DNA of 64,000 nt from IMG/VR virus record IMGVR_UViG_3300031994_000066. One strand, 5' to 3'. This DNA is from an uncultured virus (IMG/VR IMGVR_UViG_3300031994_000066) (Duplodnaviria > Heunggongvirae > Uroviricota > Caudoviricetes). The position numbers and the translations under genes were made by a program. Shown piece after piece: positions 20,136-58,054 of the stretch. How positions within the stretch are numbered: position 1 is the first letter of the stretch; each line of letters starts with the position of its first letter. The notes beneath the pieces were generated by a model, which had not been told where the DNA came from, searched no databases, and was given only the letters and a program-made list of their open reading frames with translations.

Positions 20136-20171
20136 AACTTTCTCTTTTTTAATTGCTACTCTTTTCAACCA

Positions 20172-20202
20172 CAAAAGTACACACATTTACTCACATACCA
20201 AA
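20172..20202 (-). promoter_or_regulatory. Bacteroidetes primary-sigma promoter for the leftward operon
   Basis: Minus strand TTTG-N19-TACTTTTG. Confidence 0.7.
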
Positions 20203-21280: not shown

Positions 21281-21355
21281 GGAGTCAAGGGATGGAGAGG
21301 GGAAACCCTCTCCACCTCTCTAAAAACAGAATGTTTAACTTAATACCTTAAAACG

Positions 21356-21580
21356 ATGAAAGCACACCTTAAAAAATCCACTGCTGTGGTCGAAATGAAA
21401 GCTCACGAAGTTCTCGAACTCGCCCTTATTATGGATGAAGTCTATGACGCTATAAAAAGCGGCAAGTTTAATCCTCGCACCGCTGGAGTCGCAAACTTGG
21501 TTCTCCGAAAGTACGATGGACTCTTCCGTCAGATGACAGACTGCTGGGAAGATGGAGGTGAGTATGAAACAGAAGAGTAG
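21356..21580 (+). CDS. Hypothetical protein (74 aa)
   Basis: A-rich leader; followed by a GAAA-loop hairpin at 21585-21602. Confidence 0.65.
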   Translation: MKAHLKKSTAVVEMKAHEVLELALIMDEVYDAIKSGKFNPRTAGVANLVLRKYDGLFRQMTDCWEDGGEYETEE

Positions 21581-21740
21581 CGAGAGAGGGCGAAAGCCCT
21601 CTTTTCGTGTATGGTTCTATCGCCCATGCTATGAATATCCATATTGCCGGACGCTGGAGAGCGTCGAAGAGGTCGAGCGGTATCTGGACGGCATCGAGGC
21701 AATAGGAGCTGAAGTGGTTGAAATAGAAGAGCTGACGTGA
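21564..21740 (+). CDS. Small hypothetical protein
   Basis: ATG at 21564 after GGAGGTG; the stop lies in the terminator loop. Confidence 0.5.
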   Translation: MKQKSSERGRKPSFRVWFYRPCYEYPYCRTLESVEEVERYLDGIEAIGAEVVEIEELT

Positions 21741-21756
21741 GTCGGCTCTTTTTTTT
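21727..21756 (+). terminator. Rho-independent terminator
   Basis: AAGAGCTGAC-GTGA-GTCGGCTCTT followed by T6. Confidence 0.85.
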
Positions 21757-21776
21757 ATATACACAAATCAATATCC

Positions 21777-22446
21777 GCGATTAACAATCTGAATGAGCGA
21801 CTGAAGTCAATCCGAGCGGCATATATATGGACGGCGATTTACAATCAATATTAAGCCGACGAGTAATCTGGAGGTGTCGAATAATTAGGTGCGATTTGTA
21901 ATCTGGCAGATGGATGATGTTAATCTTGAGGCGACGAATCCGAGGCGATTTGTTGTATATATAATACAAGCCGAGCGATTATGAATCATCGAACAACTTG
22001 ACGATGAATCGGCAGATGAGGCGATTTACAATCCTCGCCATATATATACTCAATCGGTGATGGTAAATCTGGATGACGAATCCAGCGTATATTGTGTGGT
22101 GGCGATTATTAATCATTGAGAATAACTTGCTGGAGAGATTTTCTTTCAAATAACGAGGCGATTATCAATCATATATCTGTGATTATATTGTGATTAGCAT
22201 TGTGTTGACGTTGATTTGACGGCTTCAAATCTCGGCTTTTGACGGCTTCAAAATTTGGAATGGATAAGTAGCCCATCGCGGAAATAGAACGCTAAAACAG
22301 GGCTATTCTGTGTCGTTCTGGATGGCGTTTTTCGTGGCGATGGAGTCGCTCGCGTGATGCCGTGAAACCATAACGCGCGATTGTTAATCTTTGTGATATA
22401 AATATATATTATAATATAAATCTCTCATATATAGCGATTATCAATC
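21777..22446. repeat. Array of 9 GCGATT-N3-AATC sites (palindromic core GATT-N3-AATC)
   Basis: Exact copies start at 21777, 21834, 21891, 21975, 22021, 22102, 22158, 22377 and 22434; a further copy at 23264. Confidence 0.9.
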
Positions 22447-22779
22447 ATAATATTCAGTTTTGAGATTTACTTTTAATCTTGAAACAGATTTAATATCACT
22501 ACAATCATAATATCCATAAACGCTTCATTTTCAATAATTTACAGATATAGTGGTTAAATCGGAGTAATCTGACGCTTTTTTCAATACAAATCAGATTGCC
22601 ATCGTTTAATCCCAGGTCAAGATGTGGCTGTTTTCGATTGTGGCTGATTATCAAGTGTTAAAAGTGGCTTAATCTTAAAGGATTGGTTTAATTAAGTGCC
22701 TCTAAATACATATTTTTCAACTATTTAACTAATTTAACACTTTTTAATAAAAAAAAGTTATAGAAAGTTTTGGATTCAT

Positions 22780-22809
22780 TTTGCTGCATTGGAAAAAAGT
22801 GTATCTTTG
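22780..22809 (+). promoter_or_regulatory. Bacteroidetes primary-sigma promoter
   Basis: TTTG (22780-83)-N18-TATCTTTG (22802-09), preceded by an AT-rich tract. Confidence 0.65.
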
Positions 22810-22814
22810 TATCA

Positions 22815-23410
22815 CCTTATTGAAGGAAAGGTATTTGACACGAGCCGAAATCACGAAATCCTCCTCAAGGAGGAAATCTGACACAAAATCGGTCTGTAAG
22901 ATTAGGCAGCCAATCCCGATGCACTTCGGGTGCGGAATCAAAGCTCGGTTCACGATGAGAATCAGTTGCAATCTGGAGAGTTAGGCAAGGAGATTTGAGA
23001 GCCACTAACGAGGCGCGAAATCAAAAGCCAAAGGTATGGTAAATCGCAAGACATCGCTCCATACCACAATCGCAGAAATCACGTTGGGTCGGCATCCAAC
23101 GTCTGAAAATCCACCTACCGCCGCAAACCAATCCGAGCGACCTAATCCCAAACGTTCTTTGAAATCTTAGTCCTCCTCCAACCAATCCGGCACCCACGTG
23201 GCTTGCTATGTGTCGCGTAGATTGGTCCCTGAAACAAGGGCGATTTGTGGAATAGAATGGTCGGCGATTGTCAATCAGGAGGAAATGGCGAGGGATTTGA
23301 TACGTTAAGTATCTGACACACTGCGAAATCTTGCTTGTCAGTTCAAGCAATGATTTAACTCATTTCAACGGTGCTTGAGCAAAAATCATCGGTAGCAGTG
23401 ACATAGATTT
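22815..23410 (+). ncRNA. Putative large structured non-coding RNA or leader
   Basis: No credible ORF. Many hairpins: CCTCC-TCAA-GGAGG, GCAC-TTCG-GGTGC, GGTATGG/CCATACC, ACGTTGG/CCAACGT, GATAC/GTATC, TTGCTTG/CAAGCAA. Starts just after a promoter. Confidence 0.45.
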
Positions 23411-23426
23411 TCGAGGTTTTCTCACC

Positions 23427-23481
23427 TATACATATAACGATTATATATATACTTCGTATATATATAATCATTATATATATA
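23427..23481. repeat. AT-rich inverted repeat (26-bp arms, 2 mismatches, 3-nt loop)
   Basis: TATACATATAACGATTATATATATAC-TTC-GTATATATATAATCATTATATATATA. Confidence 0.85.
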
Positions 23482-23668
23482 AAACGGAGATTGTAAGGCT
23501 CGTTTTCACCTAAATCCCTCATTGTAAGTAAGTTAGGTCAGATTCTGGAGCGTGATTAACTCCCGAAAGTCGTGAATCTGACCACCTATGGGTGTGTAAT
23601 TCGCTGAAAATCAACGAGATTGAGCGGATTTGGCTGCATTTTCGTCAAAAATTACTTTATACCGATTA

Positions 23669-23730
23669 AGACTTACAGTAAGGTTGATTGAAGACTTCAA
23701 GTAAGATTTCGTATCAGACTTACAAGTAAG
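23669..23730. repeat. Three iteron-like direct repeats at about 23-bp period
   Basis: AGACTTACAGTAAG (23669), AGACTTCAAGTAAG (23692), AGACTTACAAGTAAG (23716); followed by an almost pure A/T tract at about 23750-23800. Confidence 0.75.
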
Positions 23731-23963
23731 AAAAAAAAAGAAAGGTAAGATTTAATTATATAATATAAAATATAATAATAATAAATAAAATATAGATTAT
23801 GTTGTATGATGAAGATTATCTTTCAAGGTATGTAAGTGAGTAAGAGATTGAGCAGTTAAGTAAGAGATTACTACACACTCTCTATGTCGAAATGACAATA
23901 TAATCTTGGGTTATTCTCAAGAAAAAAAAGTTCAATCAATAATTCAATAAACTTACAGAGATT

Positions 23964-24107
23964 ATGGTAAAGATAAAAACAAAGATTGGGCGCAGACAGA
24001 AATTTACACAATGGCTGCGGAAGAACGATTTGAGCCGTTGGGAGTTCTACTTCCTCGTGATTTGTGCCGGCTACATCGCTGCACAGTTAATCAGGGCGTT
24101 GTTCTGA
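23964..24107 (+). CDS. Small membrane protein (47 aa, below the ORF-track cutoff)
   Basis: Preceded by the AAACTTAC leader; MVKIKTKIGRRQKF...FYFLVICAGYIAAQLIRALF*. Confidence 0.6.
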   Translation: MVKIKTKIGRRQKFTQWLRKNDLSRWEFYFLVICAGYIAAQLIRALF

Positions 24108-24174
24108 CCACGACAATCTTGGTGTCGAGAGATTGACACCAAGGTTCAACGTCTAATCAATAAAACTTACAAAA

Positions 24175-24579
24175 ATGGAAAACAAAGAAAAAATCAAAAT
24201 GCTCGGTGCTTTAATCGAGAATGAGTTGAATGGCGGCTGCTTGGGTTCGCAATCTGGTCAGCTTGACCTTGTGGCTAAATCCACACAGTTTCACCGATAC
24301 ATCCAATCGGAGTTCGGTAGCCTTTTGATTAACTTCATCAAGTTCCACGCTTTCGTCCACTCGGATGAATCTGGTTTGAGTAATCGTTTCTACGATGGCC
24401 GCAACGAATGGATTGGCGAGTTCTGCGAGCGTCTGTGGCGTGTTGGAATCCTCGACATCTGGTCTGGTGATGAGAACGCGATTAAGGACGCTATCGAGAG
24501 ACAATCCAAGGAGTTCTTCAGCGACAATCGCTTTGCACACATCAAGTGCGAGCGGATTGCGGAAATGATGGAGGGATAA
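24175..24579 (+). CDS. Hypothetical protein
   Basis: ATG directly after the repeat leader. Confidence 0.75.
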   Translation: MENKEKIKMLGALIENELNGGCLGSQSGQLDLVAKSTQFHRYIQSEFGSLLINFIKFHAFVHSDESGLSNRFYDGRNEWIGEFCERLWRVGILDIWSGDENAIKDAIERQSKEFFSDNRFAHIKCERIAEMMEG

Positions 24580-24582
24580 TCA

Positions 24583-24777
24583 ATGACGCTCACTCGAAAG
24601 CACAAGGAACAGGTAATCAACGGCACGACATACTGGATTGAGGAATACCACGAAAAAGAGTGGCAATCAGATGTGTGGATGTGGCGTTATGGCTACTACT
24701 CAACGGCTGGATTTGCGTATCTGATTTCTGATATGCTCCGCAGAAAGCCAAATCTGAAGAGGCTCAAGAACCTCTAA
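24583..24777 (+). CDS. Hypothetical protein (64 aa)
   Basis: 3 nt after the previous stop; has no leader of its own. Confidence 0.6.
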   Translation: MTLTRKHKEQVINGTTYWIEEYHEKEWQSDVWMWRYGYYSTAGFAYLISDMLRRKPNLKRLKNL

Positions 24778-24841
24778 TCTGGATGGGGATGAGAGAAATC
24801 TCGCCCCACCCGCAAATAATAATCACCAAACTTACAAAATT

Positions 24842-25483
24842 ATGGAAAATCCAGTCGAATCAAAAGATGTCAAGTACATCGAAAGAAATTATCGTATCGA
24901 AATCCATCGCGATGAAGATTGCTATATGGGTTGGGATGATTTGGGCGACCATCTCGGAACAATCTATAGCAACCATCGTAACTGGAATCCCGACAAGCAC
25001 AATGTGGAGGAAATCCTCGATGAGGAGAACCGCCCAGATTCAGAGAACTATGTGTACGTTCCAATCTGGATGTACGAACACTCCGGCACCACGATTAAGG
25101 CTTGCAGTAGCAATCCGTACTCGTGTCCGTGGGATAGCGGTTGCGCCGGATTGATAGCGTGTTCCAAGGAGAAAATCCTCAAGGAGTACGGAAATCTGTC
25201 CGAAGAGACAATCCAAAAGGTCAAGGACGTTATGGTCTCTGAAATCCACGAACTCGATTTGCTGTACCAAGGTGAAGTTTACGGATATATCGTAATCTAC
25301 ATTGGCGAGGATGGCGAGGAAGAGGAAATCGCGAGTTGTTGGGGATTCATCACCGAATGGAACAAGTTGGATTTCGTCTTCGAGGAAGCGGAAGCCGAGG
25401 CGATTGCCGACGCGAAATCGTGGTATCGCAAAAACGGCATCCAACTGCGAATCCCTTTCCCCAAGGATGAGGGAGAGGAGTAA
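24842..25483 (+). CDS. Acidic hypothetical phage protein
   Basis: Repeat leader; motifs PIWMYEHSG, CPWDSG, GEVYGY, SCWGF; QLRIPF near the C-terminus. Confidence 0.8.
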   Translation: MENPVESKDVKYIERNYRIEIHRDEDCYMGWDDLGDHLGTIYSNHRNWNPDKHNVEEILDEENRPDSENYVYVPIWMYEHSGTTIKACSSNPYSCPWDSGCAGLIACSKEKILKEYGNLSEETIQKVKDVMVSEIHELDLLYQGEVYGYIVIYIGEDGEEEEIASCWGFITEWNKLDFVFEEAEAEAIADAKSWYRKNGIQLRIPFPKDEGEE

Positions 25484-25558
25484 TCGCCTGGGTTGTGACC
25501 GAGAGATTGGTCACAACTCGCAATGACAATATTGTCAGAATCTTAAAACTTACAAACA

Positions 25559-25993
25559 ATGAAAAAAGAAGAGAAAAAAGTAGTCAGAGAATCGTATGTT
25601 ACCACTTTCGTGGCAATCGACGGAACGGAGTTCAACTCGCAGCAGGATTGCGAGAAGTACGAAAAATCGGTGGAATGTTCCATCAGCGTCCGTCTGAACG
25701 ACATTACGGTCAATCGTATGAATCAAGAGAGCGTCTTCCTGCAAGGCAATGAGGATTGTGACTGCCAAATCGTCCGTCCTCGCAACGCTTCTGACATCAA
25801 CTCTATCAATCAGTTGATATGTCTGATACGCAATCAAGAACCCGACAAAATCAAGGACGAAAATCTCGCCCACGATGAGAACATTGGCGAGTGTGTGGTA
25901 ATCTGCTACTCCTACGACCACGATTGGGCGTGGCTCTACACCGAGAGCCAAATCCGCAACCATTGGGCTGAAATGTTCGCCACCAAGGATTAA
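25559..25993 (+). CDS. Hypothetical protein
   Basis: Repeat leader; FVAIDGTEFNSQQDCEKYE. Confidence 0.75.
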   Translation: MKKEEKKVVRESYVTTFVAIDGTEFNSQQDCEKYEKSVECSISVRLNDITVNRMNQESVFLQGNEDCDCQIVRPRNASDINSINQLICLIRNQEPDKIKDENLAHDENIGECVVICYSYDHDWAWLYTESQIRNHWAEMFATKD

Positions 25994-26073
25994 TGTTGCA
26001 TCGGGCGGTGTGGGAGAAATCCCTATCCGTCCACAAGGCAATAGTGCCGATAATCAAACAAACTTACAAAATT

Positions 26074-26922
26074 ATGTTACAAGATTTTCATTATCAGGTA
26101 GGTGATTACCACATCTTTTGCGGTTTTTATGAATCGGTGCTTTGGCACGGCGATTCGGAGTACGATTGGAACTACAATGAGCGTTCCAATGTCAAAAATC
26201 CAGACCGATACGTCAATCACGAGGTCAAGGATTTCAACAAGTTCTGTGAAGAGGTCTGCAAGGGTGTCGCCGGTCAAATCAGCGAATTGCTCGTTGACGG
26301 AGAAATCTGCACCGCGTGCGAGTACGAATCAATGTCCTCTCCTCGTGAGTACAACTTCACGACGGACAAGCTCAATCTGCTTCTCAAAATCGACATCGAC
26401 TGGCTCAAGGGTGAGTTGATTGGGAACGCTGAACTCCGTGCTGCGTTTGATGATTACCTCCACGCAAAATACACATCATACGATGGATTTATCTCATTCG
26501 TCGAGAACAATGTTGATGGATATTTCAAGGAATCTGTCGATGAGTACCCCGATGTTATGGTTGATTATTGGTTGCTGACCAAAATCTACGACACATCGGA
26601 TGTCGTAAAGGCAATCAACTCGTGCGAGTATCAGCACTACCATTGGAAGTGCATCGAAATCGCTGACAACGCCGTGTATGAGTATATGGTTCCCGTCTCT
26701 GAATCAGACTGGCTGGACGATGTAATCCGTGGTCTTATGGAAAAAGACACGGAACTTAAATCGTGGCTCACTGAACGCTACAACATCCCAATCGAGCGCA
26801 ATGTTTCATATTGCGCTGCGTTGGCAATCGTTGGTAACGACGACGAAATCAAAGCGTTCAAAGAGCGTGTCGGAATGGATTGGTGGTATGAAGAGGCTAT
26901 TGAGGCCAGCCAACCCTGCTAA
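26074..26922 (+). CDS. Acidic hypothetical protein
   Basis: Start moved to ATG 26074, right after the repeat leader; SPREYNFTTD and YTSYDGFISF motifs. Confidence 0.8.
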   Translation: MLQDFHYQVGDYHIFCGFYESVLWHGDSEYDWNYNERSNVKNPDRYVNHEVKDFNKFCEEVCKGVAGQISELLVDGEICTACEYESMSSPREYNFTTDKLNLLLKIDIDWLKGELIGNAELRAAFDDYLHAKYTSYDGFISFVENNVDGYFKESVDEYPDVMVDYWLLTKIYDTSDVVKAINSCEYQHYHWKCIEIADNAVYEYMVPVSESDWLDDVIRGLMEKDTELKSWLTERYNIPIERNVSYCAALAIVGNDDEIKAFKERVGMDWWYEEAIEASQPC

Positions 26923-26990
26923 TCAGACAAGGACTGGAGTCGAGAGATTGACTTCAGTCCTCCAAACAAATCATTCAAACTTACAAAATT

Positions 26991-27236
26991 ATGGCAAAGA
27001 ACAACACACAAATCATCGAGGTAGACTACCCTAATCTGGGTAACTGCACCATTGAGGTGGTCAAGGTCGATTCCTACACCATCGAAACGAAATGCACGTT
27101 CAATCATCGCCAAACAAAGGGCGAGGGAACAAATGTGCTTGAAGCAATCGACCACGCTTGCAGACGGATGCTCTCAATCTTGAGTATGCCGGAGAATTTA
27201 CGCCAGCGATTCCACCACTTGTATGAGGTCGTATGA
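26991..27236 (+). CDS. Hypothetical protein
   Basis: Repeat leader. Confidence 0.7.
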   Translation: MAKNNTQIIEVDYPNLGNCTIEVVKVDSYTIETKCTFNHRQTKGEGTNVLEAIDHACRRMLSILSMPENLRQRFHHLYEVV

Positions 27237-27300
27237 CCGAACAATCCACCGCTTGAGAGATTTGGCGGTGGGTTCAAAATAATCAATAAAACTTACGGAT

Positions 27301-27642
27301 ATGAATGATTCAGACACTTTTATTAGAAATCGTCACCAAAATGAGGTTGTGATGGTTTTGTATGAATGTAGCACTTTTTTCTACGAATCCATCCAAGACG
27401 CGGCCGAGCGATTGTTGAAGTTCCATATCGAGCGTGAGATTGGCTCGGATGGTGATTACAACTGGAGAATTTATGTGAACGGCAAACAAATCACATGGAG
27501 TTATAGCGACGATTTCACGGAAGAAGAGGTGCTGCGCGATTGCCTCACGCACTACCGCGACAACTTCTCTTGGGCTAATCTGCATTGGTACGTTCAAGCC
27601 GGACAGAAAATCCCAATTCTACGCTCCGATATTGAGAGGTAG
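27301..27642 (+). CDS. Hypothetical protein
   Basis: Repeat leader. Confidence 0.7.
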   Translation: MNDSDTFIRNRHQNEVVMVLYECSTFFYESIQDAAERLLKFHIEREIGSDGDYNWRIYVNGKQITWSYSDDFTEEEVLRDCLTHYRDNFSWANLHWYVQAGQKIPILRSDIER

Positions 27643-27715
27643 AAAACCGGCACGTTGAGAGATTGACGTGTCGATTCAATGGCAATAATGCCAGCAATCA
27701 ATAAAACTTACAACT

Positions 27716-28168
27716 ATGAACGAATACGACAAACAAGCCAAGGATTTCCTGAAGAGATTCGGCATCAAAATCCGCAAGACCTACGTTGGTGACAGAAAGG
27801 GATTTCCCAACGAACCAAATGACAAATCGATTCATCAAGAATGGATAGTCAGAATATTCCACGAGGATAATCCTACGGAATATATGCAGTTCCCTTTCTA
27901 CGGCAGTTACAACGATTACCTCGAATATTGCAGTAAGCCTGGGAGCAGAAGAATCCTCCGTGATTACGACATCCTCGCGTGTCTGTCCTCGGAAATGTAT
28001 TGTCCCGAAACAATTGAGGACTTCATTGACGAGTACGGCTACGAGATTAAGCGAGGTGGCGACATCAAGCGTGTGATGAACATCTACGAGGGATTGAAGA
28101 AGCAGAGCGACGATTTGCACCGCATCTTCAACGAAGAGGAGCTTGAAGCCCTGTCCGAAATCCAGTAG
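27716..28168 (+). CDS. Hypothetical phage protein
   Basis: Repeat leader; YDILACL...EDFIDEYGY. Confidence 0.75.
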   Translation: MNEYDKQAKDFLKRFGIKIRKTYVGDRKGFPNEPNDKSIHQEWIVRIFHEDNPTEYMQFPFYGSYNDYLEYCSKPGSRRILRDYDILACLSSEMYCPETIEDFIDEYGYEIKRGGDIKRVMNIYEGLKKQSDDLHRIFNEEELEALSEIQ

Positions 28169-28439
28169 GCAGCACCGACCGACCGCCGAGAGATTGGTTG
28201 TCGGTCACGAATTAAAATCAAAAAACTTACAGATTTGCCCAGATTTTGCGTTTTCTCGCCTTGGGTGGTATAACCACACATAAACGGCACAAAAACGCCA
28301 CAGAGGGCAAAAAATAGGGCAAAAATAGCATAATTTTGTCATAGTTTGGAACGCCCGAAAGGGCAAGGACGGATTGAGAAGAGATTTTCATCCGTCCACA
28401 ATGGGGATATTCCCAGAATAATCAAAAAAACTTACAATT

Positions 28440-29054
28440 ATGTTAATGCACGAAGATTTAGACATTCAGTCCGGCAACTACATCACGTTGTATCACAGAG
28501 TTGACGGAAAAATCAAGGCTCGCAGATGGGTCAATCCGTTATGGAATGTCGGCAGTTGGCTGATTGAAACAAAGGGTTACTATGAGGCTGGAAATCCAGA
28601 ACGCAACATAGACGTAACCACCATCGCAATCAACACCATCACATCAGGCCCCAAGTACCTCAATCCAGAAGAGGTGAGGAAAAACAATCCCGCTGATATT
28701 GATGAAGTGCTCATCGAGTATCTTGGCGAGACAAAGACAGACCTCATCAATCTCTTCCAAGAAATCGCCGGAAACAACGGCATCCATTCTGTTGGATTAG
28801 ACTTGGTTTTGTGGCGATGGAATGACGAATACCTCAAATCGGAAAATGGGAGCGTGAGAGTTTCCCGCATCAATCTTGCCACAGGAATCGGCTATCAGAA
28901 GCTCGGCAAGGAACACGACTACGCCCTCATTCCAATCGTGAACTTCAAGACGGAAAATTTAATCTACGACCCGTTCTTCAAAAAAGAACTCTACGCAACG
29001 AAAGAAGAGTGTGACGCTAACAACCAGATTGAGATAGTGGATTTCGTCGGCTGA
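28440..29054 (+). CDS. Hypothetical protein
   Basis: Repeat leader. Confidence 0.75.
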   Translation: MLMHEDLDIQSGNYITLYHRVDGKIKARRWVNPLWNVGSWLIETKGYYEAGNPERNIDVTTIAINTITSGPKYLNPEEVRKNNPADIDEVLIEYLGETKTDLINLFQEIAGNNGIHSVGLDLVLWRWNDEYLKSENGSVRVSRINLATGIGYQKLGKEHDYALIPIVNFKTENLIYDPFFKKELYATKEECDANNQIEIVDFVG

Positions 29055-29132
29055 ACGCTTGGGTGTGGGTTGAGAGATTGACCCATATCCACAATGCAAT
29101 AATGCAGAATCAATCAAAAAAACTTACAGACA

Positions 29133-29657
29133 ATGAAAATCAGAAAGACAAAAAAGGAAATCAAGGATTTCTTGAAGAACGCCGCAAACGGCTTAATCGG
29201 CAACGAAGATGGCAGCGTGTGGTATCTCAAGATACCAATCGACACCGAGACCGACAAGTATTGCCCCGACCTCAAGATTGTCGTGTGCTATGAACCTGGA
29301 TTCGACACCGCAGAAGCAGAGACCAATCAGTACAAAGATGGTGAGTATCGAGTCTGTGCATCCTTGCGAATCGACGACAACAATTATTTCAACGATGATT
29401 GTTATAGAATTGCGGAAGAGTACCCTTTCGACAACTCCGATGAAGAAAATGATTTCGAGGAAATAGCGAAAGCACTCTACAAGGACATCCAAGATTATGT
29501 CGAGATGCAGCTCTGGGATAACAATCAGCGTATAGCAAAAGACAACAGCCATCCGCTGTGCGTCTGCTATTGGACTGACCATGAGGAGGGATTTATGTAC
29601 GATGCAAAAGACTGCAAGTTCATAGAACGCGAGGATTCGTGCCTAAATTTAGACTGA
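29133..29657 (+). CDS. Acidic hypothetical protein
   Basis: Repeat leader; D/E-rich. Confidence 0.75.
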   Translation: MKIRKTKKEIKDFLKNAANGLIGNEDGSVWYLKIPIDTETDKYCPDLKIVVCYEPGFDTAEAETNQYKDGEYRVCASLRIDDNNYFNDDCYRIAEEYPFDNSDEENDFEEIAKALYKDIQDYVEMQLWDNNQRIAKDNSHPLCVCYWTDHEEGFMYDAKDCKFIEREDSCLNLD

Positions 29658-29751
29658 GACATCTTCGGCTAATCCAAGGGTCGTGTGTGAGAGATTACCC
29701 ACGGCTCACAAAGCACAATAGTGTGCCTACAATCAAAAAAAACTTACAACA

Positions 29752-30546
29752 ATGGAATTTATCGTAGAAAAATCGCTCAAAGACTTCGATTTTTGGGGTG
29801 GAGCAACTTGGTTTGCAAATCAGTTGACAGACGACCAGTTTGACCTCATTGAATCGTACCTCGAATCAGCAAAGTGCGATGGAGAGTATTACACTGACGG
29901 AGAGATTAACGACATCTTCTGGCACGACCCAGAATCGCTCTATCCGGCTCTTCCAATCGAGGACTTGTGTCGCATCATTCTGTACAAAGACGATAATGCC
30001 GAGTACAACGATTTGGTTGACGATTTCATCGACAACTACTATCGTCTCGACCGTCTCGACTGTACAGAATCCGACATCAAAGAGGCTTGGGAAGAGTGGC
30101 TTGAAGAAGAAACTCTCACCAAGGCAAAGGAAATCGTCAATGGTGACATCGAAGAACTGATTACGAATAACACAATCACTCAAGACCAGATTGATGACGA
30201 CGCTATCGAAGAATGGCTTGATGATTGGCTGTTTGAGTCGAAACTCGACATTTCGGATGGCGAGGATTTATTCAAGAAAGCATTGCTTGATGCTTGGGTC
30301 AAGAACCGAGACGCACTACTGAATCAAGAGGCAGACAACAAGCCTATTGAAAAAGGCTATTGGCACGGCAACGATGCTTGGATTCTCGATACCGATGGAA
30401 ATACAATGACAATTCTCGTCGGCGGCCATTCCGAATCTGAAGCAAAAGAAGTCCAAAGCCTGATTAGGGCAGAGCAAGAACTTGACGGATATGAAGATTT
30501 TGTGCTGTTCGTGGATGTTGACGAATGGAAAGAGCAGAATGAGTAA
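29752..30546 (+). CDS. Highly acidic hypothetical protein (DNA-mimic candidate)
   Basis: Repeat leader; very D/E- and W-rich with few K/R. Confidence 0.75.
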   Translation: MEFIVEKSLKDFDFWGGATWFANQLTDDQFDLIESYLESAKCDGEYYTDGEINDIFWHDPESLYPALPIEDLCRIILYKDDNAEYNDLVDDFIDNYYRLDRLDCTESDIKEAWEEWLEEETLTKAKEIVNGDIEELITNNTITQDQIDDDAIEEWLDDWLFESKLDISDGEDLFKKALLDAWVKNRDALLNQEADNKPIEKGYWHGNDAWILDTDGNTMTILVGGHSESEAKEVQSLIRAEQELDGYEDFVLFVDVDEWKEQNE

Positions 30547-30630
30547 TCTGTCGCAAGCGTGGTGTGGATTAGCGTCCTATCCACGCTCAATGCGCAATAG
30601 TGCGCAGAAATCAATAAAATACTTATAACT

Positions 30631-30711
30631 ATGTGGTTTGTTTTTCTTTGTGCGTTCTTGGTTGAGTCATTCAAGGATTTGACTGGAGATGGCTACTTTA
30701 AGATGAAGTAA
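30631..30711 (+). CDS. Small hydrophobic peptide (26 aa)
   Basis: Variant repeat leader; MWFVFLCAFLVESFKDLTGDGYFKMK*. Confidence 0.5.
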   Translation: MWFVFLCAFLVESFKDLTGDGYFKMK

Positions 30712-30916
30712 CGCACGATTGGGTGTGGGTCGGTGAGAATCACCCACACTCACTATTACACGACTATCTGTATATCAAATATATAGATTGTTTTGTAAGT
30801 TTTTATTGATTGCTCGGCTGGGCGAGGTAAAATAGACATTAAGCCCAGCGCGTCCTCCGACGTGAGATTGAATGTGAGGGTGACGGAGGGGTTGTATAAT
30901 CAAAAAACTTACAACA

Positions 30917-31312
30917 ATGACAACACACGAATTAAACAAAGACCAGATGGAGCAGTTGAAGAGCAATCTGTTCTTCAATGAGGAAGAGTGGTCGGATGCA
31001 CTCACAAAAGAGGACACTGACATAATCGAGAACTCTGCAAACTGGAACCAAATCCCAGACGAGATAGTTCATAAAAACTACGCTGGAGTGATGTTCGTGC
31101 CGGACGATTTCTCCCAAGAAGAAAAGGTCGAATATCCGGCAATCACGACGGTAGAAGACCTCTGCCACGCTTTCAGCCAGCCTCTCAATCAACACGAGGT
31201 TGTGCAAGCGAGATTGGAGCGCATCCTCGATTATCTCTATGAGAATGGCATTATCGGCAACTACAAAGCAGATATGCTTGATTGTCTGTTCAGTGACGAG
31301 CAATGTTATTAA
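30917..31312 (+). CDS. Acidic hypothetical protein
   Basis: Repeat leader. Confidence 0.75.
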   Translation: MTTHELNKDQMEQLKSNLFFNEEEWSDALTKEDTDIIENSANWNQIPDEIVHKNYAGVMFVPDDFSQEEKVEYPAITTVEDLCHAFSQPLNQHEVVQARLERILDYLYENGIIGNYKADMLDCLFSDEQCY

Positions 31313-31327
31313 GAAAGGAGGCAGATT

Positions 31328-31420
31328 ATGAAAACGGCTCTCGGTATTATCTTCATCGTGCTGCCTATCGCCCTCAACTACACCAAGGAGATTAGGCAGT
31401 TGCTCACTCGTAAGAAGTGA
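31328..31420 (+). CDS. Small membrane peptide (30 aa)
   Basis: AAGGAGG upstream; MKTALGIIFIVLPIALNYTKEIRQLLTRKK*. Confidence 0.55.
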   Translation: MKTALGIIFIVLPIALNYTKEIRQLLTRKK

Positions 31421-31494
31421 GCAGGATGGGCGACAAGAGATTGTCGCTCACCCACAATGGCAATAGTGCCAGAATAATCAAAACTTACAACACA

Positions 31495-31791
31495 ATGGAA
31501 ATAAAAGAAACTATCAAGAAATCAGAACTCTACAAAATGTTGGGTTCATTTGAGAAAGTCAGACAAGGTGAGGTTAAAAACGAGCTGTGGCTTGATTTTG
31601 AACACGGATGGCTTCTCCAGTCCTATGATTCGCCGGTTGTCGCTCGCTGCGGTGGAAAGTGGTATTTCTTCCCCGACCACGATTACTCTGCCACAACCAA
31701 CAGAATGGTGATTCGTGCTTGCGGTATGAATATGCCGCAGAGACGTGTCGCTCTGGAGAAAGGTGATGCAATCTGGGTCAATATGGACTGA
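31495..31791 (+). CDS. Hypothetical phage protein
   Basis: Start moved to ATG 31495 after the repeat leader; LQSYDSPV..DYSATT. Confidence 0.75.
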   Translation: MEIKETIKKSELYKMLGSFEKVRQGEVKNELWLDFEHGWLLQSYDSPVVARCGGKWYFFPDHDYSATTNRMVIRACGMNMPQRRVALEKGDAIWVNMD

Positions 31792-31868
31792 AGCCCTTGG
31801 GTCACGGACGAGAGATTGTCCGTGGCTCACAATGCCGATAGTGGCAGAAATCATTAAAACTTACAATT

Positions 31869-32330
31869 ATGAGTAAAAAAGTGGTATTCAAAGCACTTGA
31901 GGAGATTGCTCTTGAGAACATCAAGGCGTTCTTCGACAAACTGCCGTACAAGAGTGCGGATGACCAAGAGGCGATTATAAAAGTCCTCGTTAATGCCTAC
32001 AATCTCGGATGCTCGGCACGATGCAACGAACACGACCAAATCTTTTACATCAGCGACAGAGAGGCGTTTGAGAAAGAACTGCACAATGCCAGCGATGAGA
32101 TATTCAATCAGTTATGCGTTCTCCGCTCGGAGAGTGTGGATTACGCTTGGTACGACAAAGACGGCAATCTTACTGACATCGACATCGTGTGTGTGGTCGA
32201 GGCCGTTGAGACAGATTTCGACACCATCTTCCGCGATATGATGACAGAACCGAAGATGTACGGACGATTCTGGAACTGGTGCTTCCCCGACAATCTCTTC
32301 CAAGACAGTTTCGACAGCCTTGAGGATTGA
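31869..32330 (+). CDS. Acidic hypothetical protein
   Basis: Repeat leader. Confidence 0.75.
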   Translation: MSKKVVFKALEEIALENIKAFFDKLPYKSADDQEAIIKVLVNAYNLGCSARCNEHDQIFYISDREAFEKELHNASDEIFNQLCVLRSESVDYAWYDKDGNLTDIDIVCVVEAVETDFDTIFRDMMTEPKMYGRFWNWCFPDNLFQDSFDSLED

Positions 32331-32408
32331 GGTTTGGGTGGTGGCTGGGTGACTGGCTACCATCCACAATGTGCGATATTGCACAGAATCAATTAAAACT
32401 TACAGACA

Positions 32409-32687
32409 ATGGCACAAATTGAAGTAAAATTCAAAATTGGCGATATGTGCGTCACATTCAACGCACATAAGCTCGCAATGGTCAAAATCGTTGGCATCGG
32501 AATCAATAACAAGTTCGATGTTGTGTACGAGGTTCTTTTCGATGGAAATGACATCACACAAGCCGCGAAAATCAAGGAGGAATATCTCTTCCGCGATGTT
32601 GCAGAACTGGTTGGCATAATCAACCGCAAGAAGCAATGTCTCGGCTACGGCAGACAAGTGCCTATCGACACCAAGTATGACGAGTAG
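32409..32687 (+). CDS. Hypothetical protein (possibly SH3/KOW-like)
   Basis: Repeat leader; KFKIGD start. Confidence 0.7.
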   Translation: MAQIEVKFKIGDMCVTFNAHKLAMVKIVGIGINNKFDVVYEVLFDGNDITQAAKIKEEYLFRDVAELVGIINRKKQCLGYGRQVPIDTKYDE

Positions 32688-32770
32688 CCACAAATCATCA
32701 GCGTGACGCAGCGAATATTCACGCTGGTGACAATGCAATAATGCAGACAATCAATTAAAACTTACGAACA

Positions 32771-33367
32771 ATGTTAAAGACAAAAGACATCAAAATCTTC
32801 GATGTGGTCAAGAGAACATCAAGACGCACAACTGTCGGTGGCTACACCGAAAAAATCACAAGACATCATTTCTCCGATTTTAAGGCAGCCTGCGAGGAAC
32901 TTGAATTGGTGATAGGCGAGACAAAGCGTAACGTCGAAATCAGTAAGTTAATAGCAAAGGCAGAAGCCCAGCCTGATAGTGGAATCCGCGTATGTGAAGA
33001 CCAGTACACGTTCCATCTGTTCAGCGAAATGCTGGAGGTCACTATCGACCTTTCCTATGATGAAATCACCGTCCTCGACCTCGAAAAAGAGCCGGAGGAA
33101 CGCGAGATTATCTTTGTAGACAAGGGTGTGTTCGGTGACGAAGAGGAACACTACTTCAACTGCAAGTGCCACAATGGTTACGCAATCGGTAAGGCAGCGG
33201 ATGATGAGGACTGCGGTGTTGACAAAATCCTTGTCATCTACCCGACACTTGAGGCTGTCAGCAAACTCAAACTGAAAGAAGAAATCCTCGACTGGTTCGG
33301 TCTTCACGACAAAGAGGACGTCACGTTTGGTGACGTTGCAATCAAGTATGGTCACATCATCATCTGA
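32771..33367 (+). CDS. Hypothetical protein
   Basis: Repeat leader. Confidence 0.75.
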   Translation: MLKTKDIKIFDVVKRTSRRTTVGGYTEKITRHHFSDFKAACEELELVIGETKRNVEISKLIAKAEAQPDSGIRVCEDQYTFHLFSEMLEVTIDLSYDEITVLDLEKEPEEREIIFVDKGVFGDEEEHYFNCKCHNGYAIGKAADDEDCGVDKILVIYPTLEAVSKLKLKEEILDWFGLHDKEDVTFGDVAIKYGHIII

Positions 33368-33446
33368 CCACCAGTGCGGTCGTTGCGAGAGCAACCTCCG
33401 CGCTCAATACGGAATAGTCCGTAGTAATCAAAAAAACTTGCAAACA

Positions 33447-34973
33447 ATGGAAAAAAGAAAATGGTCATCGTACCAAGAAGCAATCTTCAAATTCATCCGC
33501 GAGACGAATGACTCGCTTGTTGTCAACGCTGTGGCTGGCTCTGGTAAGACCACGACAATCGTCGAGGCAGCAAAGATAGCCCGTGAAGCCGACAAGTCCG
33601 TACTGTTCCTCGCGTTCAACAAGTCAATCGCCACTGAATTGGGCGTGAAGATGGATGGAACTGGCGTAGAGTGCAAGACGCTACACTCGCACGGCTTCCG
33701 CGCAATCCAACGCAAACTCGGTCGTGGCTGCAAGCTGAACGATGACAAGTGGAAAGACTACATCAAGGACAATGAGGAGGCATTGCTGGATGACATCATC
33801 TTCGATTCAGACAGCGAAAAATTCTCGTACATCCGCGACATCGTGAAACTCCTCAATCTCTGTCGTATCAACCTCTTCCAGAAGAGCGATGACACCAGAG
33901 AAATCGAAGACCTGGCCGAACACCACAACCTCGACGTTGACGATACGCAAGTCTGCATCGTGAACGACATCCTTGGTATCTGCTACCAGATTGAGGACGA
34001 AATTGACTTTACCGATATGATTACTCTGCCGGTGGTCAATGACAAACTCAAGCGTTGTCTGCCGAAGTATGACGTTATCTTTGTCGACGAGGCTCAAGAT
34101 TTGAGCCGTGCGCAACGTGAACTTGTGCTTGCACCCCTGACACGAGACGGTCGATTCGTCGCCGTCGGTGACAAGAAACAAGCCATCAACGGCTTTGCAG
34201 GTGCCGATGTCGTGTCTTTCAACACTCTGGCTGAAATCGCTGGTCACGAACTGCCTCTCTCCGTGTGCTACCGCTGCGGAAAGAACATCATCAAGGAGGC
34301 ACAGAATATCGTTGATTACATCCAGTGGTTTGAGAAAGCCGATGACGGTCAAGTAATCCACACGAACAAGCTCAACGAACTCTCCACCGGCGATATGGTT
34401 CTCTGTCGCAAGACCGCTCCACTAATCGGTCTCTGCCTCCGTCTCATCGCAAACGGCATCCCAGCCAGCGTGAAAGGTCGCGACATCGCAGAGGGCTTGA
34501 AGTCGATGATTATGCGTACCAAGGCAAAGACAATTTCCGCTATGGAGAAAAAACTCCAGAAAGAAATCGACAAGGTGGAACGCAAGGTTATCAAGGACGG
34601 CTTCGACGGCGAACTGTCAGAGCAGCCTCAAGTGGTCACAATCCACGACAAGGTTGACTGCATTATGATGATAGCCGACAACTGCACGTCCATTGACGAG
34701 GTGATAGAGCGTGTCGAGCGCCTGTTCTCCGACACACAAGACGGTCGCGTAATCACCCTCTCCACCGTCCACAAGGCGAAAGGTCTCGAAGCCGACAACG
34801 CTTTCATCATTTGCCCCGACCTGCTACCGATGAAACGCAAGCATCAACAAGATTGGGAACTGGAGCAGGAGATGAATTTGAAGTACGTCGCAATCACCAG
34901 AGCGAAAAAGAAGCTGGTGTACGTCGATGTCAGCGAAGAGAAGTTGGCAAAGGTAGAATTGCCAAATTCTTGA
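33447..34973 (+). CDS. Superfamily 1 (UvrD/Rep-like) helicase
   Basis: AVAGSGKTTT, LAFNK, VDEAQD, VGDKKQAI, STVHKAKGLE and YVAITRAK motifs; start at ATG 33447 after the leader. Confidence 0.9.
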   Translation: MEKRKWSSYQEAIFKFIRETNDSLVVNAVAGSGKTTTIVEAAKIAREADKSVLFLAFNKSIATELGVKMDGTGVECKTLHSHGFRAIQRKLGRGCKLNDDKWKDYIKDNEEALLDDIIFDSDSEKFSYIRDIVKLLNLCRINLFQKSDDTREIEDLAEHHNLDVDDTQVCIVNDILGICYQIEDEIDFTDMITLPVVNDKLKRCLPKYDVIFVDEAQDLSRAQRELVLAPLTRDGRFVAVGDKKQAINGFAGADVVSFNTLAEIAGHELPLSVCYRCGKNIIKEAQNIVDYIQWFEKADDGQVIHTNKLNELSTGDMVLCRKTAPLIGLCLRLIANGIPASVKGRDIAEGLKSMIMRTKAKTISAMEKKLQKEIDKVERKVIKDGFDGELSEQPQVVTIHDKVDCIMMIADNCTSIDEVIERVERLFSDTQDGRVITLSTVHKAKGLEADNAFIICPDLLPMKRKHQQDWELEQEMNLKYVAITRAKKKLVYVDVSEEKLAKVELPNS

Positions 34974-35078
34974 AAATTCTTGAAAAACTTTCAAGAATTG
35001 CTATGTACGCAGAGGAGAAATCTTCTGCGTACATCAAATGGCAATAGTGCCACATAATCAATAATTAAACTTACAACT

Positions 35079-35405
35079 ATGAGTACAAAATTTGTAGTAA
35101 ACAAAAAGAGCGGTCAACCCTATGAGGTTGTCGAAAGAACTCCCAAAGGCTCACTCTTCATCCGTCCGATGGGAGTGATTGAATTGACCGAAGAACTCGT
35201 CAAGACAATCAAGGCGAATTTCACCCACGCCTATGGTCACACCTACACCGCAAAAGATGGGCGAATTTACAGCATCACCAGCGACGTGACGCAGCAGCCT
35301 ATTCCAGTACGCGAATTTGTCAAGGGATTTCTCTACAGAGACGCTGACGGTCAAGACTTTGAGCAGATAGATGCCCCTCTGGTGCGAGCAGCACAGCAAT
35401 ATTAG
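35079..35405 (+). CDS. Hypothetical protein, last gene of the leader array
   Basis: Repeat leader. Confidence 0.7.
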   Translation: MSTKFVVNKKSGQPYEVVERTPKGSLFIRPMGVIELTEELVKTIKANFTHAYGHTYTAKDGRIYSITSDVTQQPIPVREFVKGFLYRDADGQDFEQIDAPLVRAAQQY

Positions 35406-35510
35406 GGCGAATTTTGCCACTATCAAGGCGAATTTATAGGCGAATAACCGCTACTTGAAAAATTTTTATCACACACAATCAGTAAGATACGAATAATTTT
35501 GAAAAAAATA

Positions 35511-35541
35511 TTTGGTAGTTTCAAAATTGTTCGTATCTTTG
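35511..35541 (+). promoter_or_regulatory. Bacteroidetes primary-sigma promoter
   Basis: TTTG-N19-TATCTTTG. Confidence 0.8.
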
Positions 35542-35700
35542 CACCGTGTTTGAGTGAGAAAGCACAGCCACAAAGGGTCCCGTGGTCGGAACACCTCTCA
35601 CAAGAACACGAATCGCGAGGTGGAGAAGATAGTATCTCGCTTGTGGCTTTGAAACCCACAAGAGACCGTCGATGCGAGCGCGACCCTTGCGACAAAATAC

Positions 35701-35777
35701 TGCGGAATAGAGAAGTCTGGTATCTCGCCACCCTCATAAGGTGGAGTTCATGGGTTCAAATCCCATTTCCGCTACCA
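35701..35777 (+). tRNA. tRNA with CAT anticodon (Met; initiator-like 1:72 mismatch)
   Basis: Acceptor (T)GCGGAA/TTCCGC(T), anticodon arm CCACC-CTCATAA-GGTGG, T-arm ATGGG-TTCAAAT-CCCAT, encoded CCA. Confidence 0.9.
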
Positions 35778-48340: not shown

Positions 48341-48376
48341 TCATTGAAAACATAAGTTGTAAGTTTATTGATTGCA

Positions 48377-48468
48377 GAGAGGCAAAGTAGTTTAATCCCC
48401 CTATTGGGGAGTCGCGCAAAATAACGTCTCACGTTGAATGTTGGTTCAAATCCAGCCTTTAGCCTCTC
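48377..48468 (+). ncRNA. Aberrant tRNA-like element
   Basis: Terminal stem GAGAGGC-AAAG/CTTT-A-GCCTCTC, T-arm GTTGG-TTCAAAT-CCAGC, inserted CCCC-CTATT-GGGG hairpin, no canonical anticodon arm. Confidence 0.45.
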
Positions 48469-48473
48469 AATGC

Positions 48474-48546: not shown

Positions 48547-48567
48547 CTAACATTAAAAGTTCCAGTT

Positions 48568-57826: not shown

Positions 57827-57849
57827 GTGGTCGTTTTCTCGGTAAAGTT

Positions 57850-57959: not shown

Positions 57960-58054
57960 TGTATGTTGCACATATTGTTCTGACAAGTTCTACTCGTATG
58001 TCGCATAAATGTTTGCATTGCAACGAATAAGTTTTTGCTTGTTGTGCATCCCCA

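Follow-up and report, generated by a model that had tools for sequence, protein, structure and literature searches.

Repeated signals standing before individual genes of phage accessory regions are known from several systems, among them the PeSL cassettes of T4-type phages, on which Comeau et al. 2014 reportedly also worked. As described by Arbiol et al. 2010 (PMC2839356), these elements combine a promoter with a stem-loop and recombine. The SAS motif of Cluster K mycobacteriophages precedes 11-19 non-structural genes, in the account of Pope et al. 2011 (PMC3203893), at a distance of 3-7 bp from a start codon that is mostly ATG; its copies share one orientation apart from a stray reversed one, an inverted repeat directly upstream accompanies about half of them, and the motif was suspected to act in translation. 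The same account (PMC3203893) notes that SAS contains the Shine-Dalgarno core and presents the ESAS repeats as conserved in sequence, with no RNA pairing, and as probable sites for a DNA-binding protein. Ribozymes have been reported from comparable places: tandem hammerheads flank genes in polycistronic prophage RNAs and cleave them (Perreault et al. 2011, PMC3088659), the processing of polycistronic transcripts has been proposed as one role of such ribozymes (PMC6765202), and pistol ribozymes were described near phage genes (Harris et al. 2015, PMC4604425). Here, we describe a repeated, structured leader module in an array of genes of an uncultured tailed rumen phage, IMG/VR record IMGVR_UViG_3300031994_000066, whose analysed stretch of 64,000 nucleotides is called the window below; in one slot of this array a pistol ribozyme occupies the place of the usual hairpins. 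The mechanism of the PeSL and SAS signals is only partly understood, and the window adds to them a clean case that is structured as RNA.

The array comprises 21 consecutive plus-strand genes (23.9-35.4 kb), 19 of which lie 64-271 nt from the preceding gene. A first-pass annotation, made from the letters of this DNA, had proposed a structured leader in front of about 20 of these genes, and this description was borne out: at all 19 array starts that it listed, an ATG is preceded by the same motif, 4-7 nt upstream and in one orientation (AAACTTAC at 17 starts, ATACTTAT at 30631 and AAACTTGC at 33447), and 18 full modules were recognized by a covariance model. The motif is thus present at every listed start, but the structure is not, as hairpin 1 is missing at 23964 and a pistol ribozyme takes its place at 30917. 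A 20th copy of the motif, at 28223, has no open reading frame (ORF) behind it, and two array genes, at 24583 and 31329, have no leader. In the whole window AAACTTAC occurs 21 times where 2.1 copies are expected (none of 100 shuffles reached 21), and 18 of these copies are on the plus strand within the array, at 23949-35074. An asymmetric motif placed so uniformly before ATG codons resembles SAS. Unlike SAS and ESAS, the window module has no Shine-Dalgarno sequence (GGAG, the core, is absent from the leader motif), its stems differ from copy to copy and covary, and the host belongs to another phylum. No enrichment of the motif before ATG was observed in three Bacteroidales genomes (44, 57 and 64 matches, compared with 65, 47 and 86 for a control pattern), indicating that it is not a general start signal of the host.

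Each module begins soon after the upstream stop codon, at most about 30 nt and usually no more than 10 nt behind it, with hairpin 1. On folding, this hairpin has a stem of 12-14 bp that is different in each copy, as noted before. Its loop had been described as GAGAGATT; this motif is indeed present (15 copies in the window versus 3.5 expected, nine of them in array hairpin loops and one, at 29900, inside a gene), but the cap is better understood as a GAGA tetraloop of the GNRA type closed by A-U and G.U pairs, together GAGAGAUU. Some other copies carry GAAA or GUGA caps, and in two the loop is larger. The base of the stem is semi-conserved (UGGGU ... YYCAC, then AAUG), and the hairpins are followed by CACAAUG or UCAA, not by a U run. 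Hairpin 2, found in 13 of 18 modules, has 3-6 bp and a RAUAKU loop, and its stems covary (GGC/GCC, UGC/GCA, GAC/GUC, GGGG/CCCC, GUGC/GCAC, CGG/CCG). On its 3' side come AG, AAUCA, an A-rich run, AAACUUAC, a spacer of 4-7 nt and the AUG. In the alignment, about 30 conserved unpaired nucleotides flank the two helices, and the two conserved loop motifs, read from the sequences, are 18-22 nt apart (19 ± 1 nt).

We built the covariance model from 7 copies and searched the window with it, counting full modules at E ≤ 1e-3. The 18 matches in 64 kb are all on the plus strand and all within 24114-35083; the sole further matches were four weaker ones (E 0.0098-0.67), at 23848-23963 and 30895-30920 on the plus strand and at 48351-48403 and 30788-30848 on the minus strand. 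Pairing statistics were obtained from 45 matches in the window and three close relatives (38 distinct rows), in an alignment fitted to the model. Standard pairs occupy 93.3% of 673 cells, compared with 64.2% in shuffles, none of 500 being as high, and 34-42% when the partners are slid; in this model-fitted alignment both sides change in 17 of 19 pairs. When RNAalifold was applied to a structure-blind MAFFT alignment of the 18 window copies, hairpin 1 was recovered with 13 pairs, 12 of which carry compensatory double changes. Covariation, which had been put forward as a check on the proposed element, is therefore strong in both kinds of alignment; its unusual strength stems from the 18 paralogous copies. 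Among the non-Watson-Crick cells, 97 are G.U or U.G and 12 are A.C or C.A, and this excess identifies the sense strand as the folding strand, in agreement with the earlier remark that G-T pairs in the stems favour folding of the plus strand.

The comparison with orthologous leaders in two close relatives, the metagenome contigs L045 and L046, points in the same direction. Paired columns differ by 5.7% (44/778) and unpaired columns by 1.9% (15/794), a threefold difference, and the DNA around these leaders is 89-96% identical, so the unpaired leader is more conserved than its surroundings. Of 32 changed pairs, 22 still pair, including replacements of CG by UA, UA by CG, AU by UA, CG by GC and GC by AU. 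The leader of ORF 30631 differs from its counterparts in L045 and L046 by five pair changes, four of them both-sided, with pairing kept in all. The fold is under selection, on the sense strand, and the module is a real, strongly supported structured RNA module without a name. Two additional pairings were considered and rejected: a pseudoknot of the hairpin loop GAUU with the leader AAUC, since variant loops (GAAAUC, GUGA) are unmatched by changes in the leader, and a pairing of the hairpin-2 loop with CUUAC, which gives at most 3 bp and, judged by eye, no covariation. The modules and related features are listed in Table 1.

Table 1 Leader modules and related features of the window (bit scores and E values of modules refer to the covariance model, CM).
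Feature	Position	Strand	Remarks
First leader, gene 23964	23831..23963	+	AATCAATAATTCAATAAACTTAC, 7 nt, ATG; without hairpin 1; weak CM match 23848-23963, E 0.0098
Leader module, gene 24175	24114..24178	+	Hairpin 1, no hairpin 2; 54.1 bits
Leader module, gene 24842	24779..24844	+	GAAA-capped hairpin 1, no hairpin 2; 37.9 bits
Leader module, gene 25559	25488..25561	+	Hairpins 1 and 2; 79.6 bits
Leader module, gene 26074	26001..26076	+	Hairpins 1 and 2, GAAA loop, 3x3 internal loop; 69.8 bits
Leader module, gene 26991	26929..26993	+	No hairpin 2; 51.3 bits
Leader module, gene 27301	27242..27304	+	No hairpin 2; 37.8 bits; changes in the L046 orthologue keep pairs
Leader module, gene 27716	27644..27719	+	Hairpins 1 and 2; 73.9 bits
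Orphan leader module, no ORF behind	28175..28237	+	Hairpin 1 and leader; 38.3 bits
Non-coding stretch after orphan leader, ~130 nt	28238..28364	+	28328-28349 resembles a reverse-complement leader copy
Leader module, gene 28440	28365..28442	+	Recombinant; 72.6 bits
Leader module, gene 29133	29059..29135	+	72.8 bits
Leader module, gene 29752	29676..29755	+	58.5 bits
Leader module, 26-codon ORF 30631	30555..30635	+	Non-GNRA loop, variant ATACTTAT; 43.0 bits
Hairpin-1-like stem after ORF 30631, no leader behind	30720..30752	+	Folds
Anti-leader (reversed complete leader copy)	30791..30813	+	RNA is the complement of GCAATCAATAAAAACTTACAA; AAACTTAC on the minus strand at 30795-30802
Pistol ribozyme	30812..30896	+	Rfam RF02679, 56.3 bits
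Leader, gene 30917	30897..30919	+	No hairpin 2; starts 5 nt after the predicted pistol cleavage site
Leader module, gene 31495	31422..31497	+	79.5 bits
Leader module, gene 31869	31797..31873	+	86.4 bits
Leader module, gene 32409	32334..32411	+	GUGA tetraloop; 60.8 bits
Leader module, gene 32771	32694..32773	+	12-bp hairpin 1, large non-GNRA loop, hairpin 2; CM local match 32718-32773, 26.7 bits
Leader module, helicase gene 33447	33372..33449	+	Variant AAACTTGC; 59.9 bits
Leader module, gene 35079, last of array	35002..35083	+	56.8 bits
Degenerate reversed module outside array	48351..48435	-	E 0.13

In the leader of gene 30917, the slot of hairpins 1 and 2 is filled by a full-length match (1-68) to the pistol ribozyme family, scoring well above the gathering score of 34.5 (E 1.4e-7). 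According to the model alignment, P1 is CUCG/CGAG, the loop CUGGGC is complementary to a downstream GCCCAG, and cleavage is predicted between G30891 and U30892, 5 nt before the leader AAUCA. P3 is UCCUCCG/CGGAGGG with a 24-nt insert, a GU precedes UGUA, and the inner loop of the P3 insert, GAGAUUGA, is the loop motif of hairpin 1 (GAGAUUG). By its score, pseudoknot, P2, P3 and G-U dinucleotide, this stretch is a member of the pistol family, with self-cleavage predicted. The identical match is present in the relatives L045, L046 and L054, in which a 214-nt block around it is 98-100% identical. Directly 5' of the ribozyme lies a perfect reversed leader, the anti-leader, which in the minimum free energy (MFE) fold pairs with the leader at 30897-30914 and encloses the pistol (-70.4 kcal/mol, z -4.6). 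For the ordinary leaders no Rfam family was found at E ≤ 10 over 23-36 kb; the first-pass annotation, too, could not match the element to a named family. The arrangement recalls the tandem ribozymes of prophages in that a ribozyme, here a full-score family member, lies between cistrons of a phage transcription unit; it differs in that a ribozyme is found in 1 of about 20 slots, the others having simple capped hairpins without a known catalytic core. The window also encodes an RtcB-type RNA ligase (37190-38368, plus strand; phrog_1075, E 6e-125), 1.8 kb downstream of the array. RtcB joins 2',3'-cyclic phosphate and 5'-OH ends, which are the ends left by pistol cleavage.

Reversed leader copies are not confined to the pistol slot. 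We computed duplex energies of four leaders against every 30-nt segment of the plus-strand RNA over the 64 kb (background about -3 kcal/mol, sd about 2) and obtained three outliers. The site at 48346 (-16.5 to -21.1 kcal/mol) outscores every other site of the window with three of the four leaders (-17.5 to -21.1), and that at 30784 (-16.7 to -22.5 kcal/mol) is the first or second best partner of all four. The third site, at 28321, gives -15.7 kcal/mol with the leader type CAAACUUACAAAAUUAUG and is the third-best partner of the 26074 leader in 64 kb (background mean -3.0, sd 1.9). It lies within the ORF-less cassette that follows the orphan leader, where 28328-28349 copies, in reverse, a leader and ATG of the CAAACTTACAAAATTATG type (genes 24842, 26074 and 26991). 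For this cassette (28238-28364), comparison of the window with L045 and L046 shows no clearly conserved ORF; one minus-strand and one plus-strand ORF stay open in the three relatives, with mostly non-synonymous changes. The cassette is conserved in L045 and L046 and contains a GCCCGAAAGGGC hairpin, the anti-leader-like stretch and two repeats of GGGCAAAAA(A)UAG. No Rfam family matches it, and it may encode a small non-coding RNA.

The reversed module at 48.35 kb is located between a plus-strand holin-like ORF (47996-48340) and a tRNA-Lys gene (48474-48547). Read on the minus strand, it consists of a mini GAGA hairpin, a CCCC-AAUA-GGGG hairpin, GCAATCAATAAACTTAC, 5 nt, and an ATG with only 12 codons; in plus-strand RNA it is an anti-leader. 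The spacer 48341-48473 folds with -40.0 kcal/mol (z -4.4) as plus strand versus -32.8 (z -2.6) as minus strand, and the anti-leader is partly paired within the plus-strand fold. This spacer might yield a small RNA when the tRNA is processed, or might be an antisense promoter directed towards the holin-like gene. More generally, the reversed copies may be anti-leaders in the sense RNA or modules acting on the other strand, and we choose neither.

The leader core ACTTAC recurs as the half-site of three GACTTAC-N1-2-GTAAG palindromes in the control region before the array (23670..23730; at 23670-23683, 23693-23705 and 23717-23730), which by their sequence look operator-like. GTAAG is found 9 times on the plus strand of 23500-23900, compared with a window average of 0.31 per 400 nt. 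GUAAG/GAGAUUG repeats at 23831-23870 are complementary to the first leader, two GUAAGAGAUU stretches upstream pair weakly with it, and the MFE fold pairs 23831-23853 with this leader (z -2.0). Very AT-rich stretches at 23430-23480 and 23740-23800, one of them an alternating-TA palindrome, flank the GTAAG repeats and CTTAC/GTAAG palindromes between divergent gene blocks; the whole looks like a combined origin and operator region.

The reading that we favour, at about even confidence, is that the module acts at the RNA level, between cistrons, and joins a protective or processing hairpin to a shared translation-start leader. The array would be one long sense-strand transcription unit of accessory genes, or a few such units, read through from the control region. 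Read-through is suggested by the lack of host-type boxes before the genes and of U runs, and by the pistol and its pairing partners, which need transcription across the leader. TAnnTTTG boxes, which we take to be the Bacteroidetes -7 consensus, are enriched in the window (62 versus 38 expected) and present before other genes of the window; on the plus strand of the array they occur only at 28331, in the non-coding stretch, and at 33109 and 34076, inside genes, and none lies in a leader. Hairpin 1 would form the protective 3' end of the upstream cistron and would be cut at the foot of its 3' strand, within the conserved CAC-AAU stretch; this cut is proposed by analogy with the pistol, whose own predicted site lies at the 3' base of P3. 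At the newly made 5' end of the piece that follows, protection would come from the optional hairpin 2 or from the 5'-OH that the pistol leaves. The unstructured, A-rich AAUCA...AAACUUAC leader would serve as translation-start region and as a shared handle for joint control, as suggested by its fixed spacing to the ATG and the low divergence of its unpaired positions; its controller would be the complementary anti-leader stretches in phage RNA (three copies) or a leader-binding protein. In the pistol slot, the ribozyme would cut itself just before the leader, which the anti-leader would mask until cleavage. The gain, loss and swapping of cassettes by recombination between modules would be a side effect.

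We infer cleavage at the hairpins, stabilization of the resulting pieces and translational control through the leader. In T7, RNase III hairpins between the early cistrons of one long transcript are cut to leave a protective 3' stem; the window stems are shorter (12-14 bp) and carry a conserved tetraloop, and their cleavage is hypothetical. The first-pass suggestion of a repeated RNA signal is supported by the covarying stems, the G.U excess, the GNRA loops, the fixed distance to the ATG, the pistol slot and the lack of an Rfam family for the element, whereas any specific RNA function for it, be it processing, protein binding or translation, is conjectural. An extension of the favoured reading, which seems to us rather improbable, is that the phage switches all genes of the block together through the invariant leader, with anti-leaders masking the start regions and cleavage freeing or exposing the messages. 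Anti-leaders would then be supplied in the 5' region, in the ORF-less cassette, before the pistol, and between the late holin-like gene and the tRNA, where RNase P could release the one beside the tRNA; the pistol would cut one slot and some hairpin-directed nuclease the others. If true, such a joint switch would give a pistol ribozyme a concrete job and constitute a new class of phage-specific module for RNA processing and translation.

Several observations weigh against an RNA-level module. Upstream of the array no good host-type promoter was found, just -7 boxes with one mismatch and without a -33 element, so that a phage-specific promoter could lie within the repeats. None of the scanned window proteins could be assigned to an RNase or RNA-binding family, the reversed leader copies can be read as minus-strand promoters, and 5 of 18 modules have no hairpin 2, so that a role as 5' cap is not general. 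The array hairpins of two phages with a 45% identical helicase, L022 and L023, overlap true host-type promoters with a -33 TTG in the loop, and the loop motifs of the window are likewise 19 ± 1 nt apart. Finally, the module family is known from one phage species group only (the window and four metagenome contigs), a narrow distribution that so far limits generality.

These points lead to the main alternative, that the module is a PeSL-like cassette, in which hairpin 1 attenuates or terminates, the conserved stretch is a promoter of a non-host type and each gene is its own transcription unit; we consider this possible, though on balance doubtful. The promoter would extend from the loop GAGAGATT over about 19 nt and RATAKT or AATCAAT through AAACTTAC, its reader would be the host RNA polymerase with a phage-made factor or a phage polymerase encoded outside the window, and the reversed copies would drive antisense or non-coding RNAs. 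As in PeSLs, in the published account, a repeated stem-loop and a conserved pre-start sequence lie between small unknown genes of a plastic phage region, and PeSLs are documented as recombining cassettes of promoter and stem-loop (PMC2839356). A parallel comes from L022 and L023, where A/U-run-flanked hairpins lie between the small genes of an equivalent array, with the -33 TTG in the loop and a TAnnTTTG box 19-20 nt later; each has about six strong hairpins among 13 TAnnTTTG sites within the 10 kb upstream of the helicase. Judged from its sequence, this design is PeSL-like with host promoters, a Bacteroidota counterpart of the T4 PeSLs. It resembles the window in having such an array ahead of a homologous helicase, with a hairpin between genes, some 30 nt of A-rich leader up to the ATG and a like spacing of the two motifs (18-22 nt in the window), but its A/U-run flanks, -33 TTG loop and TAnnTTTG box are all absent from the window modules. 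A promoter would also suit the failure to find a good host promoter upstream, the gene-less copies (the orphan leader at 28223 and the reversed ones at 30795 and 48359) and the palindromic ACTTAC operators of the control region, which suggest that the motif is read as DNA. Yet a double-stranded promoter needs no stem covariation, GNRA caps or G.U bias, and the pistol and its pairing partners make sense only if transcription passes through the leader. Moreover, the hairpins lack a U run, transcripts would be almost leaderless as the motif ends 4-7 nt before the ATG, short and long leaders would shift the start site relative to the invariant motif, and the 64 kb yielded no polymerase or sigma family, the 1888-aa CBM_5_12 ORF fitting a tail fibre. 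PeSLs, as described, have a host sigma70-type promoter and terminating stem-loops; the window modules have neither a host-type box nor a U run, and their own features are covarying stems under a GNRA cap, a motif abutting the ATG and a ribozyme in one slot. The element belongs to neither the PeSL nor the SAS family, and only the 85-nt pistol falls in a named family. We therefore describe the module as a per-gene repeated signal of a phage accessory region in a structured-RNA form, not matched to a described family.

The exchange of cassettes bears on a further alternative. One slot, directly before gene 28440, varies in content: it is empty in the window, but L045 and L054 have a gene of 68 aa there and L046 an unrelated one of 116 aa. 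Each of these genes is accompanied by a leader variant and a downstream hairpin 1 of its own; the upstream hairpins 1 and 2, and the downstream ACAAUG and hairpin 2, are common to all versions. The module of gene 28440 is recombinant, with the hairpin 1 that precedes the extra cassette of the relatives and the hairpin 2 and leader of 28440 itself. The three cassette junctions fall in three places, namely in the 3' strand of hairpin 1 (that of the window), behind hairpin 2, and ahead of ACAATG; such scatter is what homologous exchange between repeats would produce, and near-identical modules can serve as sites for it. The repeats thus mark places where cassettes are exchanged, for which homologous recombination is the simplest explanation, and likewise recombination between PeSL copies is described as deleting, inserting and replacing genes with crossover points that vary within the element. 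The comparison of gene order among relatives that the first-pass annotation had proposed shows that the order is not fixed and that junctions lie inside leaders, but the junctions are not fixed and no recombinase was found in the scanned window ORFs. Its suggestion of an integron-like array, in which the hairpins would be single-strand DNA recombination sites for a site-specific recombinase, is not supported and seems to us extremely unlikely. In its favour, genes travel with their own downstream hairpin through a slot that is empty or holds unrelated genes, all cassettes have one orientation, and variable stems amid conserved flanks resemble attC sites, which are also imperfect hairpins at the 3' end of promoterless cassettes in one orientation. 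On the other side, integrons have an adjacent tyrosine-recombinase integrase and attC sites that fold as the bottom strand; the scanned window ORFs include no integrase or recombinase family, attC-type core boxes are not seen (the stem bases are UGGGU...YYCAC), the sense (top) strand folds better and is capped by RNA-type GNRA tetraloops, and the junctions are variable. In addition, the deletions of L054 were joined at overlaps of 5-8 nt inside genes as well, and the RecT-like and SbcC-like genes of the phage suffice for short-homology exchange.

We think it very unlikely that the module is a new small self-cleaving ribozyme or a trans substrate of the neighbouring pistol. A known ribozyme in the equivalent slot, the conserved unpaired nucleotides around two helices and the precedent of earlier classes discovered beside known ribozymes (PMC6765202, PMC4604425) would fit this idea. 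Against it, 5 of 18 modules have no hairpin 2, the loops vary (GAGA, GAAA, GUGA, non-GNRA) without compensating change elsewhere, the loop-to-leader pairing GAUU:AAUC shows no covariation, and ordinary hairpins lack the GU and P2 strand that should follow in a pistol substrate; according to the review PMC6765202, other RNAs near ribozymes did not cleave. Equally slight is the probability that we assign to antitermination or protein-loading sites of the boxB/nut type, where the capped hairpin would bind a phage protein that modifies the polymerase. Sites of this type place a short stem with a GNRA-like loop beside a boxA, number one or two in an operon and are bound by an N-type protein. The GNRA-type loop with conserved closing pairs suits such a site, but 18 sites in 11 kb far exceed the need of a processive antiterminator, no terminators to overcome are visible, and the tight coupling to the ATG is left unexplained. 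No N-like protein could be recognized. The hairpin promoters of N4-type phages, described as hairpins of 5-7 bp with loops of 3 nt, centred at -11 on the template strand and read by a giant virion RNA polymerase (PMC4496689), also differ: hairpin 2 of the window has a loop of 4-6 nt and is missing in 5 of 18 modules, and no polymerase was found in the 64 kb. Intrinsic terminators have a GC-rich stem with a U tract behind it, and no such tract was found after the window hairpins.

Four metagenome contigs (L045, L046, L047 and L054) are 89-97% identical to the window and carry the same modules. L054 (2188 nt) has three deletions relative to the window (28508 to 30482, 30923 to 31935 and 32130 to 32640) with overlaps of 5-8 nt and junctions within or just inside genes; perhaps this contig is a defective variant, or else a chimera made in assembly. 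Another genome, G001 (28.9 kb, estimated to be about 35% complete), represents the same phage, being 100% identical to window positions 20000-23849, and ends at 23849, just before the array, whose repeats may have broken its assembly. In more distant phages from IMG/VR (helicase 40-45% identical) the motif was not found. Pattern matches in IMG/VR for the leader (19 loci) and for loop plus leader (18 loci) were single, in coding-like sequence and without a hairpin, and were set aside as chance, as were 104 loop-plus-leader stretches from a scan of one genome per prokaryote species, which came from unrelated phyla in about the number that we estimate for chance. Applied to 80 loci from the prokaryote scan, the covariance model gave 2 weak matches, of which L059 is the 5' region of a host gene behind a normal promoter. 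Protein relatives of gene 24842 with 64-85% identity exist in metagenomes, and no match was obtained in 80 IMG/VR loci (1.2 Mb) encoding such a relative; a k-mer screen of the same loci found mostly host-type promoter boxes, and a tandem repeat that it returned in L238 appears to lie inside a gene and is irrelevant. The nearest cultured phage, Bacteroides phage C3_41T2LP, has no such array in the first 50 kb of its annotation table, its genes being tightly packed. We did not find a paper describing the leader, in searches that were not aimed at the motif itself or at rumen or Prevotella phages.

The co-occurrence of one ribozyme slot with 17 hairpin slots on what would be the same transcript makes the role of pistol ribozymes testable. 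The shared leader may also be of use as a portable expression signal for Bacteroidales genetics.

From its gene content, the window belongs to a tailed phage of Bacteroidota type. It encodes a DnaB-like primase-helicase, a sliding clamp, two DNA methyltransferases, RtcB, SbcC-like and RecT-like proteins, a reverse transcriptase and a tape-measure-like protein; the nearest cultured relative of the primase-helicase is that of a Bacteroides uniformis phage (38.5% identity). An HTH_3 protein is also encoded, at 42445-42690. Most window genes are not preceded by a Shine-Dalgarno sequence, and Shine-Dalgarno-led initiation is largely lacking in Bacteroidota. Public sequencing runs that contain the window sequence are from sheep and bovine gut, and one sheep gut RNA run contains 44% of the sampled words. 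Among the array proteins, no Pfam family was found beyond weak sub-threshold matches; five match PHROG families of unknown function, and the product of 33447 (508 aa) is a helicase (phrog_1967, E 3.5e-98). One leaderless array gene (31313-31420; 30 codons, hydrophobic) has a GGAGG ribosome-binding site 6 nt before its ATG, and L046 carries about 230 nt of different sequence at this spot. Directly after the last array gene and before a tRNA-Met gene (35701-35777), a long, near-perfect, AT-rich inverted repeat at 35467-35555, with only sub-threshold microRNA-family matches in Rfam, may be the terminator of the array. The 1888-aa ORF (3-5669, plus strand) is open-ended, has the CBM_5_12 carbohydrate-binding module as its sole family and is probably a tail fibre rather than a polymerase. 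The reverse transcriptase gene (56579-58018, minus strand; phrog_1423, E 2e-50) adjoins genes with CBM_5_12 and Lcl_C-like domains, and this region may be a diversity-generating retroelement that targets a tail protein.

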